From positions 1 to 64,000 of the IMG/VR virus record IMGVR_UViG_3300045450_000145: DNA of 64,000 nt; one strand, 5' to 3'. The notes under the pieces are model-generated. The model made no database searches, was not told the origin of the DNA, and saw only the letters and a list, made by a program, of their open reading frames with translations. Position 1 is the stretch's first letter. Each line of letters begins with the position of its first letter. Both the position numbers and the translations under genes were made by a program. This stretch comes from a virus. Below, piece by piece: positions 7,619 through 32,201 of the stretch.

Positions 7619-7693
7619 ACTCACGTAGATTAGAAGTTAGATCACTTGGCTTTCACCCAGGAGAAACGGGGGCAGTACCCGTCGTGAGTACCA
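7619..7693 (+). tRNA. tRNA-Glu(TTC), second divergent copy
   Basis: actcacg/cgtgagt; cttgg-ctttcac-ccagg; T-loop GGCAGTA; CCA. Confidence 0.85.
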
Positions 7694-7701
7694 AAATTAT
7701 T

Positions 7702-7851
7702 ATGTTAGATCACATCAAAGATTGCCCACTCTGTTGGACAGAAGTAGAAGACGAAAGTCATTCATGCAATTATTGTGGTTATAAAATTTCCCAGTTAGTG
7801 TATAATGAAACTGACTGGGAAGAAATAACAAACGTAATTATACCTGCATAG
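7702..7851 (+). CDS. 49 aa zinc-ribbon protein
   Basis: MLDHIKDCPLC..CNYCGY; stop lies inside tRNA-Ile 5' end. Confidence 0.5.
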   Translation: MLDHIKDCPLCWTEVEDESHSCNYCGYKISQLVYNETDWEEITNVIIPA

Positions 7852-7915
7852 TTCAAAGGTAGAACAAAGTGCTGATAACGCTTAGACGATGGATCGATAC
7901 CATCTGCAGGTACCA
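7842..7915 (+). tRNA. tRNA-Ile(GAT)
   Basis: acctgca/tgcaggt; aagtg-ctgataa-cgctt; T-loop ATCGATA; CCA. Confidence 0.9.
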
Positions 7916-7934
7916 AGTATAAGAATACTTAGGT

Positions 7935-8005
7935 GTGACGGTAACTCAATGGTAGAGTTCTAGACTGTGACTCTGGATGCGCGGGTTCGATTCCCGTCCG
8001 TCACC
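7935..8005 (+). tRNA. tRNA-His(GTG), no encoded G-1, no encoded CCA
   Basis: gtgacgg/ccgtcac, C73; ctaga-ctgtgac-tctgg; position -1 is T; 3' reads CCT. Confidence 0.9.
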
Positions 8006-8018
8006 CCTAAGTATTTTT

Positions 8019-8094
8019 GGACTATTAGCTCAATCGGGAGAGCACGTCACTGTCACTGACGAGGTAAGGGGATCGAAACCCCTATAGTCCGCCA
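8019..8094 (+). tRNA. tRNA-Asp(GTC)
   Basis: ggactat/atagtcc; cgtca-ctgtcac-tgacg; T-loop ATCGAAA; CCA. Confidence 0.92.
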
Positions 8095-8549: not shown

Positions 8550-8999
8550 ATGACAATAAAATATGAGAAAATTTCATCAGCTTTAAAAGCATACTTTAGT
8601 GAAAACGATCACGTGTCTAAGGGAACTGGAGGTTGGCACCAATCACCAGAACATATTGCAAAGAGAATGAAATCTTTACAAGAAACTATAGACAAAAAAG
8701 GTCGTAAGACTGAAGCGCAAAAGAAAGCAGGTAATAAAGCAGGAGTTTATGCATACCGAGCAAGAAAACGGAATGCGATTCCTGAAGATGCTGACTTGAA
8801 ATTGATAAAAAGAATTTATGAGAATTGTCCTGAAGGCTATCACGTTGATCATCGTATTGCGTTAGCTTCAGGTGGAATGCATCACCAAGACAACTTACAA
8901 TATCTTCCAATATCGGAGAATTGTAGAAAAGGAAAGAATAGCTCATATGATGAGTCATTAGCTATTCAGTGGAAAGATTTAATGGGGTTGAAGCTTTAA
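8550..8999 (+). CDS. HNH homing endonuclease
   Basis: YHVDHRIAL..GGMHHQDNLQYL..SENCRK; stop lies inside tRNA-Lys. Confidence 0.85.
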   Translation: MTIKYEKISSALKAYFSENDHVSKGTGGWHQSPEHIAKRMKSLQETIDKKGRKTEAQKKAGNKAGVYAYRARKRNAIPEDADLKLIKRIYENCPEGYHVDHRIALASGGMHHQDNLQYLPISENCRKGKNSSYDESLAIQWKDLMGLKL

Positions 9000-9057
9000 A
9001 GTGAAGCAACTGGCTTTTAACCAGTAGAAGAGGGGCCGGTACCCTCCAGCCCTACCA
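8984..9057 (+). tRNA. tRNA-Lys(TTT)
   Basis: ggggttg/cagccct; actgg-cttttaa-ccagt; T-loop GCCGGTA; CCA. Confidence 0.85.
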
Positions 9058-10289: not shown

Positions 10290-10296
10290 CATTTAT

Positions 10297-10368
10297 TGGG
10301 GTGAGACTTGGTAGTCGCGAACGGCTTTGACCCGTTACGAAAAGAGTTCAATTCTCTTCACCCTTGCC
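10297..10368 (+). tRNA. tRNA-Gln(TTG)
   Basis: tggggtg/caccctt (U1.U72), G73; aacgg-ctttgac-ccgtt; CCA not encoded. Confidence 0.8.
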
Positions 10369-10375
10369 CGTATAT

Positions 10376-11808: not shown

Positions 11809-11882
11809 TGGGGTGTAGCTTAAAAGTAGAGCACGGTGCTTTGACCACCGGGAAGAAGGGGCAGTACCTTCCACCCTTGCCA
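11809..11882 (+). tRNA. tRNA-Gln(TTG), second copy
   Basis: tggggtg/caccctt (U1.U72); cggtg-ctttgac-caccg; T-loop GGCAGTA; CCA. Confidence 0.85.
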
Positions 11883-13581: not shown

Positions 13582-13652
13582 GACTCGGTGGTATAGTGGT
13601 TGTGCCGTGGATTGCAAATCCACAGAGGGCGGTTCAATTCCGTCTCGAGTCT
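13582..13652 (+). tRNA. tRNA-Cys(GCA)
   Basis: gactcgg/tcgagtc, U73; gtgga-ttgcaaa-tccac; CCA not encoded. Confidence 0.9.
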
Positions 13653-13694
13653 CAGGTTACATATTTGCATAAATAATCCTTTTAAGGAAATAAT

Positions 13695-16731: not shown

Positions 16732-17253
16732 ATGAAAATTGCGCAGAGATTCATCACAATCAATGGCCAAGTTTGCATGTGCAGCTTTGAGGACGACATT
16801 AATTTTGCGTATCATATTGAGTATGTAATTGGGAGTAGCTACAAAGGCAAACACCTTGAAGTTGTCAACACCTTTACCGACTTAAATTATGGCTCCGCGC
16901 CGGAGCTGGGCGATATGAAAAGATTTGGGTCTGGTCATGACGGTGCATTGGAGGAAGTTAAACGACTAGATGAATTGTTTGACATTAAGCCAGGTGATTC
17001 GCTGCATCACAGCATCCAATATAGAGTGTTCGAGACGCCAGTGTATTCAGTTGGCCGCGACTACTATGAATTTGAGCAACATGAATTTTTCATCGATAAT
17101 CACGATGGCATTGCTGAGAGGTATGAAGAGTTGATTAAAAACGGTAAGGGTGATGACGCATATGACATCGCCTTCGAGCGACAGATCATCAAGAATCATA
17201 ATAACTTCAATACCTTTGAAGAGTGTATGAATTTTGTAAAGACCAAGCTATGA
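16732..17253 (+). CDS. hypothetical protein
   Basis: ORF from MKIAQ (track start at 16642 is probably too early). Confidence 0.65.
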   Translation: MKIAQRFITINGQVCMCSFEDDINFAYHIEYVIGSSYKGKHLEVVNTFTDLNYGSAPELGDMKRFGSGHDGALEEVKRLDELFDIKPGDSLHHSIQYRVFETPVYSVGRDYYEFEQHEFFIDNHDGIAERYEELIKNGKGDDAYDIAFERQIIKNHNNFNTFEECMNFVKTKL

Positions 17254-26228: not shown

Positions 26229-26708
26229 ATGCACGACAAAGATGAAACACAATATGAAAAGAGAGCACGAGCCGGTTTAATCCCATACATCAAGACCCCT
26301 GATGGCTACCAATACCTGATGATGATTAGTTCTGATCCAAAGTTTGGTGGTCCTAAGCCGATGATATCAAAGGGAAAAATTGAACCGGGCGAGACACCGG
26401 CCCAAGCCGCACTTCGAGAAGCCGAGGAAGAGCTCGGCTTAAAAGCATTTAACATTAAAGATGAGTCGTTTGACTTTTTAGTTGGCGAGCGAGTTATCTT
26501 ATACTCGGGTACTTATGACCTTAGTCTGTACTCGTGTGAAATTCTGGATCGACATGACTTTGACAAGTGGTGTGATGAAACGGAATATACAGAGTGGTTT
26601 TCATTGATGGACTTTCAGCAGCGGGGACGTCGAGACCACATCAAATATGTAGAGCGATTGGAGAACAAGTTACGATCGTATAAATTGGCTAGCACAAATA
26701 TGGAGTAA
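26229..26708 (+). CDS. NUDIX hydrolase
   Basis: Nudix box GKIEPGETPAQAALREAEEELG. Confidence 0.92.
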   Translation: MHDKDETQYEKRARAGLIPYIKTPDGYQYLMMISSDPKFGGPKPMISKGKIEPGETPAQAALREAEEELGLKAFNIKDESFDFLVGERVILYSGTYDLSLYSCEILDRHDFDKWCDETEYTEWFSLMDFQQRGRRDHIKYVERLENKLRSYKLASTNME

Positions 26709-26710
26709 AA

Positions 26711-27289
26711 ATGAAAATTCTAGCATTAGATTCACAAGGTCAACCGAACGAATGGCTTTCCAAGCAGGAAGCGATTATTCAGCATGCAAAGGGCAACGTC
26801 ATCTGGCAACTAGGAAACGAAGATGATGAAACTTTATTCCGTGGCGGTATCAACCGAATCACAGGACTGCAGTCTTCAATTGTGACCGCGCCAATCATTG
26901 CTATCCGTGGCGTTGCAGCCCGCTCATCTAAGCTGGCAGGTCGTGCTCCATCACTAACCAATGCGGAACTCTTCCGTCGTGACTTGAATATTTGTGCTTA
27001 CTGCGGTAAGACCTTTCACGCGCTGCGTCTTACCCGCGATCACATCATCCCTCAGTCACGAGGCGGTGTTGACAAGTGGACTAACGTTGTAACTGCATGT
27101 GAAAGCTGCAATCACATGAAGGATGACAAGTTGCTGAGTGAGTGTGGTATGCAACTACTTTATGTGCCATACGTTCCAAACTGGTCAGAAGGCCTGATTT
27201 TGGAAAACCGGAACGTCCTTGCTTGCCAGATGGCATATTTGAAGTCTTTCTTGCCGGAGCACTCTCGAGTGTTGCAGGCAATTCATTAA
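26711..27289 (+). CDS. HNH endonuclease (McrA-like)
   Basis: RRD..CAYCG..TRDHIIPQSRGG..WTNVVTACESCN..K. Confidence 0.92.
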   Translation: MKILALDSQGQPNEWLSKQEAIIQHAKGNVIWQLGNEDDETLFRGGINRITGLQSSIVTAPIIAIRGVAARSSKLAGRAPSLTNAELFRRDLNICAYCGKTFHALRLTRDHIIPQSRGGVDKWTNVVTACESCNHMKDDKLLSECGMQLLYVPYVPNWSEGLILENRNVLACQMAYLKSFLPEHSRVLQAIH

Positions 27290-27653: not shown

Positions 27654-29273
27654 ATGGGTTCCAATATCTACACATCTTTCGCTGCAGAAAATTCTGTCAA
27701 GCCAACTAAGCAATCTACCCCACAAACTCAAGCTATTCCAGGCCGTGAAGCCGAAATGGCGCGTAATAACGCCGGAGGTTTTTCCTTCACTCTTGGTGAT
27801 TGGGGTGTCCTAGACCGCTTCCTGATGATCGGCTCTGAAAGCGCAGGCTACTATGTCGGTGCCAAGGAAACTACCAAGCTAAGCTTCGACACACTTAAGA
27901 AGTGCATCGCAGAAGATGGTGTTCGCGTCGTCAACCGCATTGTCGAGTACTCTGTTGCAGGTCGTGCGCCAAAGAATGACCCAGCTGTTGTTGCTCTTGC
28001 AGTAACAGCAGTTTATGGCAATCAAGAAACAGTTCAAGCCGCATATGGTGCTCTGTCACAAGTAGCTCGCACTGGTACCCATCTGTTCCTATTTGTTTCA
28101 ATCCTCAATGACCTTGGTAAGTGGAATGCAGCTGCAAAGCGCGGTGTTTCCGCATGGTATAACGGTAAGCGAGATGACAAGCTAGCAGTTCAGCTGCTAA
28201 AGTACCAAAGCCGTAATGGTTGGTCTCACCGTGACGTTCTTCGCCTGGCGCACGTCAAGGCTGGAACTCCAGCTCAGAATGCGCTCTTCCGCCTGGCGGT
28301 TAAGGGTGAACTGACTGATGAAGCCGGTGTAATTCTACCGCGTCTCGTTGAAGACTTCCTAACCTTGAAGGGTAATACCGACAAGCGTAAGGTCCTGTCT
28401 ATCATTGAGCAGAATGACCAGGTTTCTTGGGAAATGATTCCAACCGAGTTCATGAAGGACAAGGACATCTTGTTCGCGCTTGTGAAGAACATGGGTATGA
28501 CCGCGCTTATTCGTAAGCTTGGTTCTCTGTCTGCACACGGTGTAATTGATCCCCTGTCTGAAGGTGCAAAGCTAGTTAATAGCAAGCTTGCGGACACTGA
28601 AGCGCTAGTTCGTGGTCGTGTTCACCCAGTTACTATTTTGCAGGCAATGAAGCAATATGCTCAAGGTCGCGGTGAAAAGGGTTCTCTGGTTTGGACTCCA
28701 AATCAATTTATTGTTTCCACTCTAGATGATGCATTCTATGCGTCATTCGGTACCATTGAAAAGACCAACGAGTCTTACCTACTTGGTGTTGACATCTCTG
28801 GTTCCATGACTGGTGCGATGGTAAATGGTTCGCCTAACCTTCGCGCGTGTGATGTTGCAGCCGTCATGGCAATGGCAATTGCGCGCAACCAGCCAAATAG
28901 CCACATTGTTGGTTTCAACCAAAAAATCAAGGAGCTCAAGATCAACTCTAAGATGCGCCTTGACCAGGCGCTAGGTGAAATGCGTAACTGGGATGGTGGT
29001 GGCACCGACTGTGCGAAGCTCTTTGAGTATGCTAAGCAAAAGGGTATGCACGTCGACAAGTTTGTGTCTATTACTGACAATGAAACTTGGGCTGGTAACC
29101 AAGCTCCTGTACAGGCACTGAAGAAGTATCGTGCAGCAAAGAACCAAAATGCTAAGTCTGTTGTGATTGGTACCTCGGTATCCAACTTCACAATTGCCGA
29201 TCCTAAGGATGCAGGTATGCTAGACATTGCTGGCTTCGACTCAGCAGCACCGCAAATCATTGCAATGCTATGA
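27654..29273 (+). CDS. rsr: Ro60/TROVE-domain RNA-binding protein
   Basis: NNAGGF..LDRFLMIGSE, YQSRNGWSHRDVLRLAH, vWA MIDAS DISGSM, TDNET, GFDS. Confidence 0.93.
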   Translation: MGSNIYTSFAAENSVKPTKQSTPQTQAIPGREAEMARNNAGGFSFTLGDWGVLDRFLMIGSESAGYYVGAKETTKLSFDTLKKCIAEDGVRVVNRIVEYSVAGRAPKNDPAVVALAVTAVYGNQETVQAAYGALSQVARTGTHLFLFVSILNDLGKWNAAAKRGVSAWYNGKRDDKLAVQLLKYQSRNGWSHRDVLRLAHVKAGTPAQNALFRLAVKGELTDEAGVILPRLVEDFLTLKGNTDKRKVLSIIEQNDQVSWEMIPTEFMKDKDILFALVKNMGMTALIRKLGSLSAHGVIDPLSEGAKLVNSKLADTEALVRGRVHPVTILQAMKQYAQGRGEKGSLVWTPNQFIVSTLDDAFYASFGTIEKTNESYLLGVDISGSMTGAMVNGSPNLRACDVAAVMAMAIARNQPNSHIVGFNQKIKELKINSKMRLDQALGEMRNWDGGGTDCAKLFEYAKQKGMHVDKFVSITDNETWAGNQAPVQALKKYRAAKNQNAKSVVIGTSVSNFTIADPKDAGMLDIAGFDSAAPQIIAML

Positions 29274-30421: not shown

Positions 30422-30688
30422 ATGAAAATCGATCCTAAGCTAATTGGGACGATCCCGGAAGTCGAGTGCCTGCGGGATGAGTTAGATATTATCGTCTTGC
30501 GATACGAGACCGAAGTTGCGCGCCGCCGGAGCAACATCCCATTTATTGAAGGCAGCGAGATTCGGCCCGACATTATCGCAGACGCAATCATCATTGAGAT
30601 GTGTGCCACTCACTTCTACGGTTTTGTGGTAGAAGAATTTAACACCATGACAGATTTAATTGCTGCCATGTATAATTTGGAGACATGA
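30422..30688 (+). CDS. hypothetical protein (paralogue of previous ORF)
   Basis: MKIDPKLIGTIP..HFYG. Confidence 0.6.
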   Translation: MKIDPKLIGTIPEVECLRDELDIIVLRYETEVARRRSNIPFIEGSEIRPDIIADAIIIEMCATHFYGFVVEEFNTMTDLIAAMYNLET

Positions 30689-31530
30689 TGGGACGGATTG
30701 ATAATGACGCGCTCGGAGATAGGATGAAGCAATATGAGGCGGTAAGTACGTCTCGCAAAGCTTTCAAGGGGCAGCCTCTTATTGCTCGGCTTGATGGCAA
30801 AAATTTTAGTACCTTTACTGGTGGTTTAACTAAGCCTTACCATGAAGGCCTAATTAAGCTAATGCAACATCTTACGCGCTATCTAGTCGAAGAATATCAA
30901 GCCACAATTGGATACACTCAAAGCGACGAAATTACACTCGTCTTTTTGTCTAAAACTAACGACGCTGGCGAGCTTCTGTTTGATGGGCGCTTTCAAAAGT
31001 TGGATTCTCTATTGGCCGCAGATGCATCAGTTGAATTTAATTCCCTCATTGAACGCTATCTACCAGAACGAAATCCCCAGCTTGGGTATACTGGCAAGAA
31101 GCCAAAGTTTGACTGTCGCACCTACATTGTGCCGACTGTAATGGAGGCATACAACACGGTGCTATGGCGTCAGTTGGATGCAACTAAAAATGCGATCTCG
31201 ATGGCTGCTCAAAGCTGCTTTAGTTACAAAGAACTGCATGGTAAAAACGGCGGTGAGATGAAGAAAATGCTGCTCTCGAAGCATGGCATTGACTTCGATT
31301 TAGACTATCCATTTCATTTTAAGCGAGGCAGTTTCTTTAGTAGACAAAAAATGTCAATGCCTCTGTCTGAAGAGCAGCTTGCTAAGATGCCAGCTCACCT
31401 CCGTGCAACTCAAGAGAATGCAGAGTTTGTGCGTAGCTATACTAGATGTAGCGACATCGATCTGCTAACTCAAGAAAATCCCATTGTTGCCCTTTTTGGC
31501 GATAAGGTTATTAAACCGATCGGTGAGTAA
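30685..31530 (+). CDS. thg1: tRNA-His guanylyltransferase Thg1-like protein
   Basis: LGDRMKQYE, ARLDGKNFSTFT, YTQSDEITL, FDCR, WRQLDATKNAISM. Confidence 0.92.
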   Translation: MMGRIDNDALGDRMKQYEAVSTSRKAFKGQPLIARLDGKNFSTFTGGLTKPYHEGLIKLMQHLTRYLVEEYQATIGYTQSDEITLVFLSKTNDAGELLFDGRFQKLDSLLAADASVEFNSLIERYLPERNPQLGYTGKKPKFDCRTYIVPTVMEAYNTVLWRQLDATKNAISMAAQSCFSYKELHGKNGGEMKKMLLSKHGIDFDLDYPFHFKRGSFFSRQKMSMPLSEEQLAKMPAHLRATQENAEFVRSYTRCSDIDLLTQENPIVALFGDKVIKPIGE

Positions 31531-31544
31531 GATATAATATCATC

Positions 31545-32201
31545 ATGACTAATAACCTTACAAGAGCCGACAAGCTAATGCTTGCAGCCCGATTCTGGCT
31601 CATCGGGATGGCAGAGAATGACGAACAATATTACCAAGTTCTCAAGGCCCTGGAGATTGCGTCAAAGCACCACAATGGAAAACGAAATGGTGGTGACCCG
31701 GAGATTATTCACCAGCTCGGCATCTTCCATCGTCTTCGAACACTTCATCGTCACATTAAGAACCCAGTTACGGTTTATTGTCTAGTGTTTCTGCATGACT
31801 CACTAGAAGACCCTAACCAGGAAACTAAAGAATACATTTCACCTCAACTTATCGAGGAAGAGTTTGGACTTGAGTTCCTAATTAAGTTGAAAAAGATGAG
31901 CAAGGAAATCATGGGAGTCAAGAACCCAGATTACTCTCTGCAAACTATATTTGAAGATGAAGACACTGGCGTCGCCAAGCTTGGCGACCGAGATGACAAC
32001 GTTTCTAGCATGTATGGCGTCTTCAAGCCCGAGCGACTTGCACGATATGTTAAAGAAACTGAAGAACAGTTCTTGCCCCTCATCAAGGTCCACCGCCGCA
32101 AGTTCCCTTATCAGGAAGCAGTGATGGAGAATTTAAAGCTATCGCTAGTGAATCAACTGCGTCTCATTAAGAGCAAGAGAGAAGAACATGACCCAACCTA
32201 A
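31545..32201 (+). CDS. HD-domain hydrolase, RelA/SpoT-hydrolase (SAH)-like
   Basis: H.G.RNGGDPEIIH, LHDSLED, KLGDRDDN. Confidence 0.75.
   Translation: MTNNLTRADKLMLAARFWLIGMAENDEQYYQVLKALEIASKHHNGKRNGGDPEIIHQLGIFHRLRTLHRHIKNPVTVYCLVFLHDSLEDPNQETKEYISPQLIEEEFGLEFLIKLKKMSKEIMGVKNPDYSLQTIFEDEDTGVAKLGDRDDNVSSMYGVFKPERLARYVKETEEQFLPLIKVHRRKFPYQEAVMENLKLSLVNQLRLIKSKREEHDPT

Follow-up and report, generated by a model that had tools for sequence, protein, structure and literature searches.

A Recurrent Leader-Trailer Helix on a Phage tRNA-His Without Encoded G-1 and Its Relation to a Phage Thg1-Like Protein

The tRNA-His Locus and Its Flanking Helix

The window, i.e., the entire stretch of 64,000 nt analyzed here, corresponds to positions 1 to 64,000 of the IMG/VR virus record IMGVR_UViG_3300045450_000145, a contig of 183.5 kb that derives from an uncultured giant phage and is approximately 51% complete. 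All genes and helix strands described for the window are located on the plus strand. A gene for tRNA-His(GUG) of 71 nt, with a 7-bp acceptor stem and a 4-nt variable region, was identified at positions 7935-8005 by ARAGORN, which assigns the anticodon gtg, and by the Rfam model RF00005, whose full-length match of 65.4 bits is the top tRNA score within an array of 22 tRNAs. Direct reading of the acceptor stem gives the strands GTGACGG (7935-7941) and CCGTCAC (7998-8004) with the pair G1:C72, followed by the discriminator C73 at position 8005, as in canonical bacterial tRNA-His. The encoded G-1 that pairs with C73 in canonical bacterial tRNA-His is missing. Instead, position -1 (7934) is a T opposite C73, and the sequence and its predicted fold place a 1x1 U.C mismatch between the flanking helix and the acceptor stem. 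Positions 74-76 (8006-8008) read CCT, so that A76 is not encoded. Acceptor stem, C73, T at -1 and CCT end had all been listed in the original prediction, and reading of the sequence, ARAGORN and Rfam agree with it. The locus is a real and probably functional phage gene.

The neighboring genes, tRNA-Ile(GAT) upstream (7842-7915) and tRNA-Asp(GTC) downstream (8019-8094), were both recognized by ARAGORN and Rfam and both encode CCA, as do 19 of the 22 array tRNAs; a T at position -1 is found in 16 of the 22. The sole array members without an encoded CCA are tRNA-His, tRNA-Gln(TTG) (10296-10369; tail CCC) and tRNA-Cys (13582-13653; tail CAG), and neither of the latter two carries a flanking helix. 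Three tRNAs at 7619-7690, 8984-9054 and 11809-11879, all with encoded CCA, scored above the Rfam gathering threshold (38-48 bits) and received no ARAGORN call. No close relative of the phage was found by megablast or with an exact 25-mer of the tRNA-His. A gp23 gene, sought as a clue to the host, was not found on the contig, and a large ORF examined for host inference gave mixed distant matches.

The tRNA-His gene is enclosed by an inverted repeat. The leader strand (7921-7933) takes up most of the spacer between tRNA-Ile and tRNA-His and was delineated by folding, repeat search and covariation; it contains the perfect 10-mer AATACTTAGG (7924-7933), which is the exact reverse complement of CCTAAGTATT (8006-8015). 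The trailer strand (8006-8018), defined by sequence and fold, begins with C74, C75 and T76 and stops one base before tRNA-Asp, whose 5' end abuts the helix. With tRNA-Ile ending at 7915 and tRNA-Asp starting at 8019, the two strands occupy nearly all of both spacers. The 10-bp repeat pairs in register with the acceptor stem, from -2:74 to -11:83, and a search of the 12-kb tRNA region returned the helix repeat, with arms at 7916-7941 and 7998-8023, as its longest inverted repeat. In the predicted RNA fold, the cloverleaf is closed by 13 leader-trailer pairs (7921-7933 with 8006-8018), so that the perfect 10-bp repeat originally proposed to extend the acceptor helix not only exists but folds to 13 bp. 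The energy of the precursor fold is -40.8 kcal/mol (z = -4.6), and none of 200 shuffled sequences folded as well. The resulting stack comprises 13 leader-trailer, seven acceptor and five T-stem pairs, interrupted by the single U.C mismatch. Among the 22 array tRNAs, tRNA-His alone has a flanking repeat of more than 6 nt. At 17205/17283, a repeat of 11 bp whose spacing resembles that of a tRNA was also considered and was rejected, as it folded no better than shuffled sequence.

The Thg1-Like Protein and the Distribution of G-1

The ORF at 30685-31530 encodes a protein of 281 aa that is predicted to be a bacterial-type 3'-5' nucleotidyltransferase of the Thg1-like protein (TLP) group. It matches the Pfam Thg1 family PF04446 (5.4e-28; 98 bits compared to a cut-off of 29.2 bits) and phrog_4717 (4e-66). 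Its best solved relative is BtTLP of Bacillus thuringiensis (4kgk, 1.9e-29), with eukaryotic Thg1 chains at 1e-7 to 1e-10. The aspartate of the RxDG motif (D37) and the S80-D81-E82 triad are invariant in 24 homologues and align with the BtTLP motifs RIDG and SDE. The HINNLYN motif of eukaryotic-type Thg1 is replaced by DATKNAIS, where chain 5xox reads THINNLY, and the ORF is therefore assigned to the bacterial-type TLPs. The Thg1 gene call thus stands, with the catalytic residues intact. Eukaryotic-type Thg1 performs non-templated G-1 addition opposite A73. BtTLP, by comparison, adds a templated G-1 efficiently to C73-tRNA-His, with a kcat/KM of 5500 M-1 s-1 (PMC3061083), which supports the idea that C73 could serve a bacterial TLP as template for G-1. 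The same enzyme favors 5'-truncated tRNAs 5-160 fold, non-His tRNAs included (PMC3061083). Annotations of phage Thg1 genes already exist for many genomes (162 records), and comparative work treats them as RNA-repair genes (PMC7824862). By analogy, the phage TLP would be a general bacterial-type polymerase for the repair of tRNA 5' ends rather than a dedicated partner of tRNA-His. Its gene lies 22.7 kb downstream of tRNA-His; if RNase P trims the precursor to G+1, the enzyme could add G-1 opposite C73, and because such addition is possible on the trimmed tRNA, the TLP may service tRNA-His opportunistically.

Upstream of the TLP gene are located genes for a NUDIX protein (26229-26708), an HNH endonuclease (26711-27289) and a Ro60 protein with TROVE and vWA domains (27654-29273). 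Downstream, a SpoT/RelA-type HD hydrolase gene (31545-32201) starts 15 nt past the TLP stop codon; residues 35-179 of its product match the hydrolase part of RelA/SpoT (TIGR00691, 1.3e-9), and the protein also matches phrog_15275. Judged from these matches, it may be a small alarmone hydrolase. Some small alarmone hydrolases strip the pyrophosphate that toxic RelA-SpoT homologues place on tRNA 3' ends. If the HD hydrolase acts on tRNA 3' ends, a 3'-end repair gene would adjoin a 5'-end repair gene. The NUDIX-HNH-Ro60-TLP-HD block could possibly have a role in RNA quality control or repair, a role with which its gene content fits.

The co-occurrence of TLPs and tRNA-His lacking G-1 was surveyed in two samples. 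In the first, the tRNA clusters of 80 TLP-encoding viral contigs were fetched and typed. The second consisted of viral contigs collected with a tRNA-His pattern blind to position -1, together with contigs related to the T arm and acceptor of the window's tRNA-His, and was searched for PF04446. A tRNA-His covariance model did not separate tRNA-His from other tRNAs, and typing was therefore carried out with ARAGORN and a purpose-written acceptor/T-arm parser; the counts include only genes with cleanly parsed acceptor and T stems and were tallied by hand per contig. A widespread phage tRNA-His group starting with GGTGTT was left out of the counts as its acceptor stem is ambiguous between 7 and 8 bp. 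Members of this group (L095, L098, L104, L119, L123, L171, L177, L179, L186, L190 and others) end in TTCACCCC and show mismatched acceptor pairs.

Obligate systems of Thg1 plus G-1-less tRNA-His exist in eukaryotes and some archaea. No such pairing was detected between TLP+ and TLP- phage contigs: a tRNA-His with a base other than G at -1 occurred in 5 of 22 TLP+ contigs compared to 25 of 77 TLP- contigs (odds ratio 0.61, Fisher p = 0.44). In the unbiased pattern sample, a TLP was found in 0 of 15 contigs with a non-G(-1) tRNA-His and in 7 of 41 with an encoded G-1. The matched enzyme-substrate pair envisaged in the original prediction is thus not borne out, and the check that it had itself named, co-occurrence across phages, turned out negative. 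What survives is the biochemical plausibility of G-1 addition to a tRNA that does not encode G-1 and keeps C73, without a co-evolved pair. Across 85 parsed phage tRNA-His genes, 52 have G at -1 and 18 combine T(-1) with C73, which makes the latter a common feature independent of TLPs. T/U is also the commonest leader base at -1 of non-His phage tRNAs (1075 of 1592), in keeping with an ordinary RNase P cut at +1. TLP+ phages mostly encode G-1. Among named phages, the nearest TLP relative, Ralstonia phage RsoM2USA, does so as well. No tRNA match was obtained in five of the 16 TLP+ contigs that are near-complete. In the phages CcrSC, GAP32, BcepSaruman and Goe8, no tRNA-His was found among the top hits of a model that scores tRNA-His weakly. 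TLPs are common in phages of Caulobacter and Brevundimonas, whose hosts charge tRNA-His without G-1 (PMC3064791). Most G-1-encoding phage tRNA-His genes share the trinucleotide ATG before G+1 (A-3, T-2, G-1), a motif that matches the E. coli determinants U-2 and G-1 for an RNase P cut at -2/-1 (PMC5499578).

Felix O1-like phages of Citrobacter, Escherichia and Salmonella resemble the window in that their complete genomes contain a T(-1)/C73 tRNA-His. They differ in lacking a TLP (PF04446 search), and their tRNA-His is helix-free with an encoded CCA. In these phages, e.g., Citrobacter phage Michonne, it is tRNA-Ser(TGA) that has a 13-bp helix and a CCT tail like those found here on tRNA-His: in Michonne (L274, 8083-8172) and in L256, L263, L264 and L270, this tRNA lies in a flush TTAGG/CCTAA helix of 12-15 bp, with G73 bulged. 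As Felix O1-like coliphages hold both a G-1-less tRNA-His and a clamped tRNA-Ser, the question is testable in E. coli. Taken together, between roughly one-fifth and one-third of the phage tRNA-His genes are without an encoded G-1, and phage TLPs do not explain this gap. The survey argues for annotating phage Thg1-like genes as tRNA 5'-end repair enzymes and not as "tRNA-His guanylyltransferases."

Recurrence of the Helix Among Phage tRNAs

Parsed phage tRNAs were scored for pairing that extends the acceptor stem, with permuted trailers as the null. In the register -2:74, at least 9 of 10 pairs were formed by 15 phage tRNAs, compared to 0.6 expected per 1677 with permuted trailers. The helix is enriched on tRNA-His (7/109 vs. 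8/1912; odds ratio 16, p = 5e-6), an enrichment that is overstated because the tRNA-His examples share ancestry and represent perhaps three to four independent lineages. Helix-clamped tRNAs are no commoner in TLP+ contigs (7/598) than in TLP- contigs (12/891; p = 0.82).

Eight homologous tRNA-His loci were aligned with their flanks (the present window, L246, L146, L180, L262, L189, L128 and L122); the acceptor stem of L246 is identical to that of the window's tRNA-His. Changes on both sides were observed at 7 of the 13 leader-trailer pairs, and 95% of cells in the whole structure are paired, compared to 39-48% when the partner strand is slid. The base at -1 is T in five of these loci and G in three.

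In most examples, the extension measures 12-15 bp and is thus about as long as the 12-bp minihelix that acceptor and T arm form across the junction. Three arrangements can be distinguished. The first (class i, non-His tRNAs) has a -1:73 pair, together with a CAA tail in seven cases and a CTG tail in one. In the second (class ii, non-His tRNAs), N73 is bulged and -1 pairs with 74, with a CCT tail in five cases and CCA in one; the tRNA-Ser of Felix O1-like phages belongs here, as does a tRNA-Pro of G005. In the third (class iii), formed by tRNA-His, -2:74 is the first pair of the helix; four of the tails are CCT and three are CCA. More than one clamped tRNA is present in some phages, such as L117 (IMGVR_UViG_3300043433_000105), with Asn, Met and Gln, and L225 (G016), with Pro and Met. 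The clamped tRNAs of these two have the leader TTTG(T/C) and the trailer CAAA, with -1 paired to 73.

The helix of the window is one case of a pre-tRNA design that recurs in phages, with a uniform length of 12-15 bp and compensatory changes. A literature search for helix-clamped tRNAs found no paper describing a helix with a shift of one nucleotide on tRNA-His, and with this register shift the design represents a previously undescribed form of processing stalk.

Possible Routes to the Mature 5' End

Almost universally, tRNA-His is marked for recognition by an extra 5' G. To our knowledge, this G is obtained by only two routes, retention during RNase P cleavage and addition by Thg1. If its geometry is read correctly, the leader-trailer helix suggests a third route to an extra 5' nucleotide, one that bypasses RNase P. 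The explanation that we consider best overall, and to which we give about an even chance of being correct, is that the helix serves as a stalk for an RNase III-type nuclease while the TLP is a general 5'-end repair polymerase and not a dedicated partner. In this model, the helix would block RNase P until it is opened and would most likely offer a stalk for processing by an RNase III-type nuclease specific for double strands, whose 2-nt-staggered cut would free tRNA-His from the tightly packed array. On non-His tRNAs, the register of the helix would place the cut so that the 5' end is +1 and the 3' end is C74 or C75. On tRNA-His, where the helix begins one nucleotide further out, the same cut would leave N-1 (here pU-1) together with C74C75, so that A76 alone would be left for the CCA-adding enzyme. 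If one enzyme makes both cuts with a 2-nt 3' overhang, the position of the 5' end follows from the conserved 3' residues, namely +1 for classes i and ii and -1 for tRNA-His; the helix itself would therefore supply the extra 5' nucleotide of tRNA-His.

Several properties of the enzymes involved bear on this model. RNase III leaves 2-nt 3' overhangs and requires a duplex of approximately two turns, towards which helices stacked coaxially also count (PMC1540722), and the predicted fold of the tRNA-His precursor provides a quasi-continuous helix of about this length. E. coli RNase P is already slowed by at least two pairs between the leader and RCCA (PMC9433436). [quoted passage not shown] T4 tRNA-Gln does not share the leader-trailer architecture. 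Genes for RNase III, a CCA-adding enzyme and HisRS were not found on the 51%-complete contig, and the missing RNase III gene likewise weighs against the model. The helix register and the conserved 3' residues would fit a 2-nt-staggered cut of the RNase III type, and it is this geometry and conservation that point to such an enzyme. The earlier suggestion that the helix could redirect end processing is plausible, and the helix that it presupposes is real. A broader proposal, which we advance tentatively and hold to be possible rather than likely, is that phages use a measured leader-trailer helix of 12-15 bp on the acceptor stem to have an RNase III-type nuclease produce the two ends of a tRNA by a single staggered cut, with the register shift on tRNA-His leaving the extra 5' nucleotide and bypassing special RNase P cleavage; in the window this nucleotide would be a U, which the TLP may or may not correct.

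The stalk model competes with a dedicated pairing, in which RNase P cuts at +1 and the TLP must add G-1 as the host HisRS could not otherwise charge the tRNA. The T at -1 together with C73 and the intact catalytic residues of the TLP are in line with this scenario, as are the activity of BtTLP on C73-tRNA-His (5500 M-1 s-1; PMC3061083) and the more than 100-fold loss of efficiency of E. coli HisRS without G-1 (PMC5499578). Moreover, all three large contigs among the helix-type tRNA-His relatives (the window, G003 and G076) carry a TLP. However, G076 encodes G-1 despite its TLP, and G003 carries a G-1 copy as well. The census (5/22 vs. 25/77), the prevalence of encoded G-1 among TLP+ phages and the persistence of T(-1)/C73 tRNA-His in Felix O1-like phages without a TLP argue in the same direction, and we regard a dedicated pair as rather unlikely. 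It is also conceivable that G-1 is dispensable, with a tolerant HisRS or a sufficient low level of charging, a helix that only insulates neighboring tRNAs against misfolding or puts 3' trimming ahead of 5' trimming, and an unrelated TLP. The frequency of T(-1)/C73 (18/85, including the complete TLP-free Felix O1-like genomes) speaks for this reading. The G-1-independent tRNA-His of alphaproteobacteria has A73 and U72, whereas the phage tRNA-His keeps C72 and C73. Although some bacteria do charge G-1-less tRNA-His, HisRS and tRNA-His of the alphaproteobacterial system form a divergent, orthogonal pair in which tRNA identity has changed (PMC3064791). Insulation would furthermore leave the uniform helix length, the exact register and the conserved C74 or C74C75 unexplained, so that dispensability of G-1 appears improbable. 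Finally, the repeat might be a feature of the DNA, namely the scar left by recombination or insertion of a mobile tRNA cassette, or the locus might be a decaying gene copy. Phage tRNA arrays have a mosaic make-up that includes homing endonucleases, and an HNH gene is present upstream of the TLP gene. Yet the tRNA-His scores highest in its array, the flanks differ in sequence among loci while their pairing is kept through compensatory changes, and different tRNAs carry different repeats, which excludes a shared terminal repeat and counts against a DNA-level origin; we consider this reading highly improbable.

As to the mature 5' end itself, a G-1 added by the TLP after an RNase P cut at +1 is given a little less than an even chance. 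Retention of U-1 after a staggered cut is held to be distinctly less probable, and a tRNA-His without any -1 nucleotide, and with poor charging, slightly less probable again. A retained U-1 facing C73 would make a poor identity element. In yeast, HisRS still uses tRNA-His with A-1 or C-1, albeit less efficiently, U-1 not being among the variants tested (PMC3061083), and by analogy a 5' phosphate at -1 may be enough for charging.

The system described here shares individual elements with several known ones. Like E. coli hisR and bacterial tRNA-His in general, the phage tRNA-His has C73, the pair G1:C72 and a GUG anticodon. In E. coli hisR, RNase P cuts at -2/-1 with U-2 and G-1 as determinants (PMC5499578), whereas the phage has G-2 and U-1 and a leader that is wholly paired with C74, C75 and the trailer. 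The TLP has its Pfam family and the catalytic D and SDE residues in common with BtTLP (PDB 4kgk) and MaTLP, and, as in archaea without an encoded G-1, C73 permits templated G-1 addition (PMC3061083). It differs from these systems in being phage-borne and in a presence among phages that shows no link with the base at -1 of tRNA-His. The closest architectural parallels are the RNase III stalks of rRNA leader-trailer helices, T7 R1.1 and T4 tRNA maturation, in which, as here, a duplex encloses a stable RNA. The phage stalk, known from sequence, departs from them in its length of only 12-15 bp and in being stacked directly on the acceptor stem. In both cases, the result is a quasi-continuous helix of approximately two turns, and on the phage tRNAs the geometry of a staggered cut would fit the conserved 3' residues.
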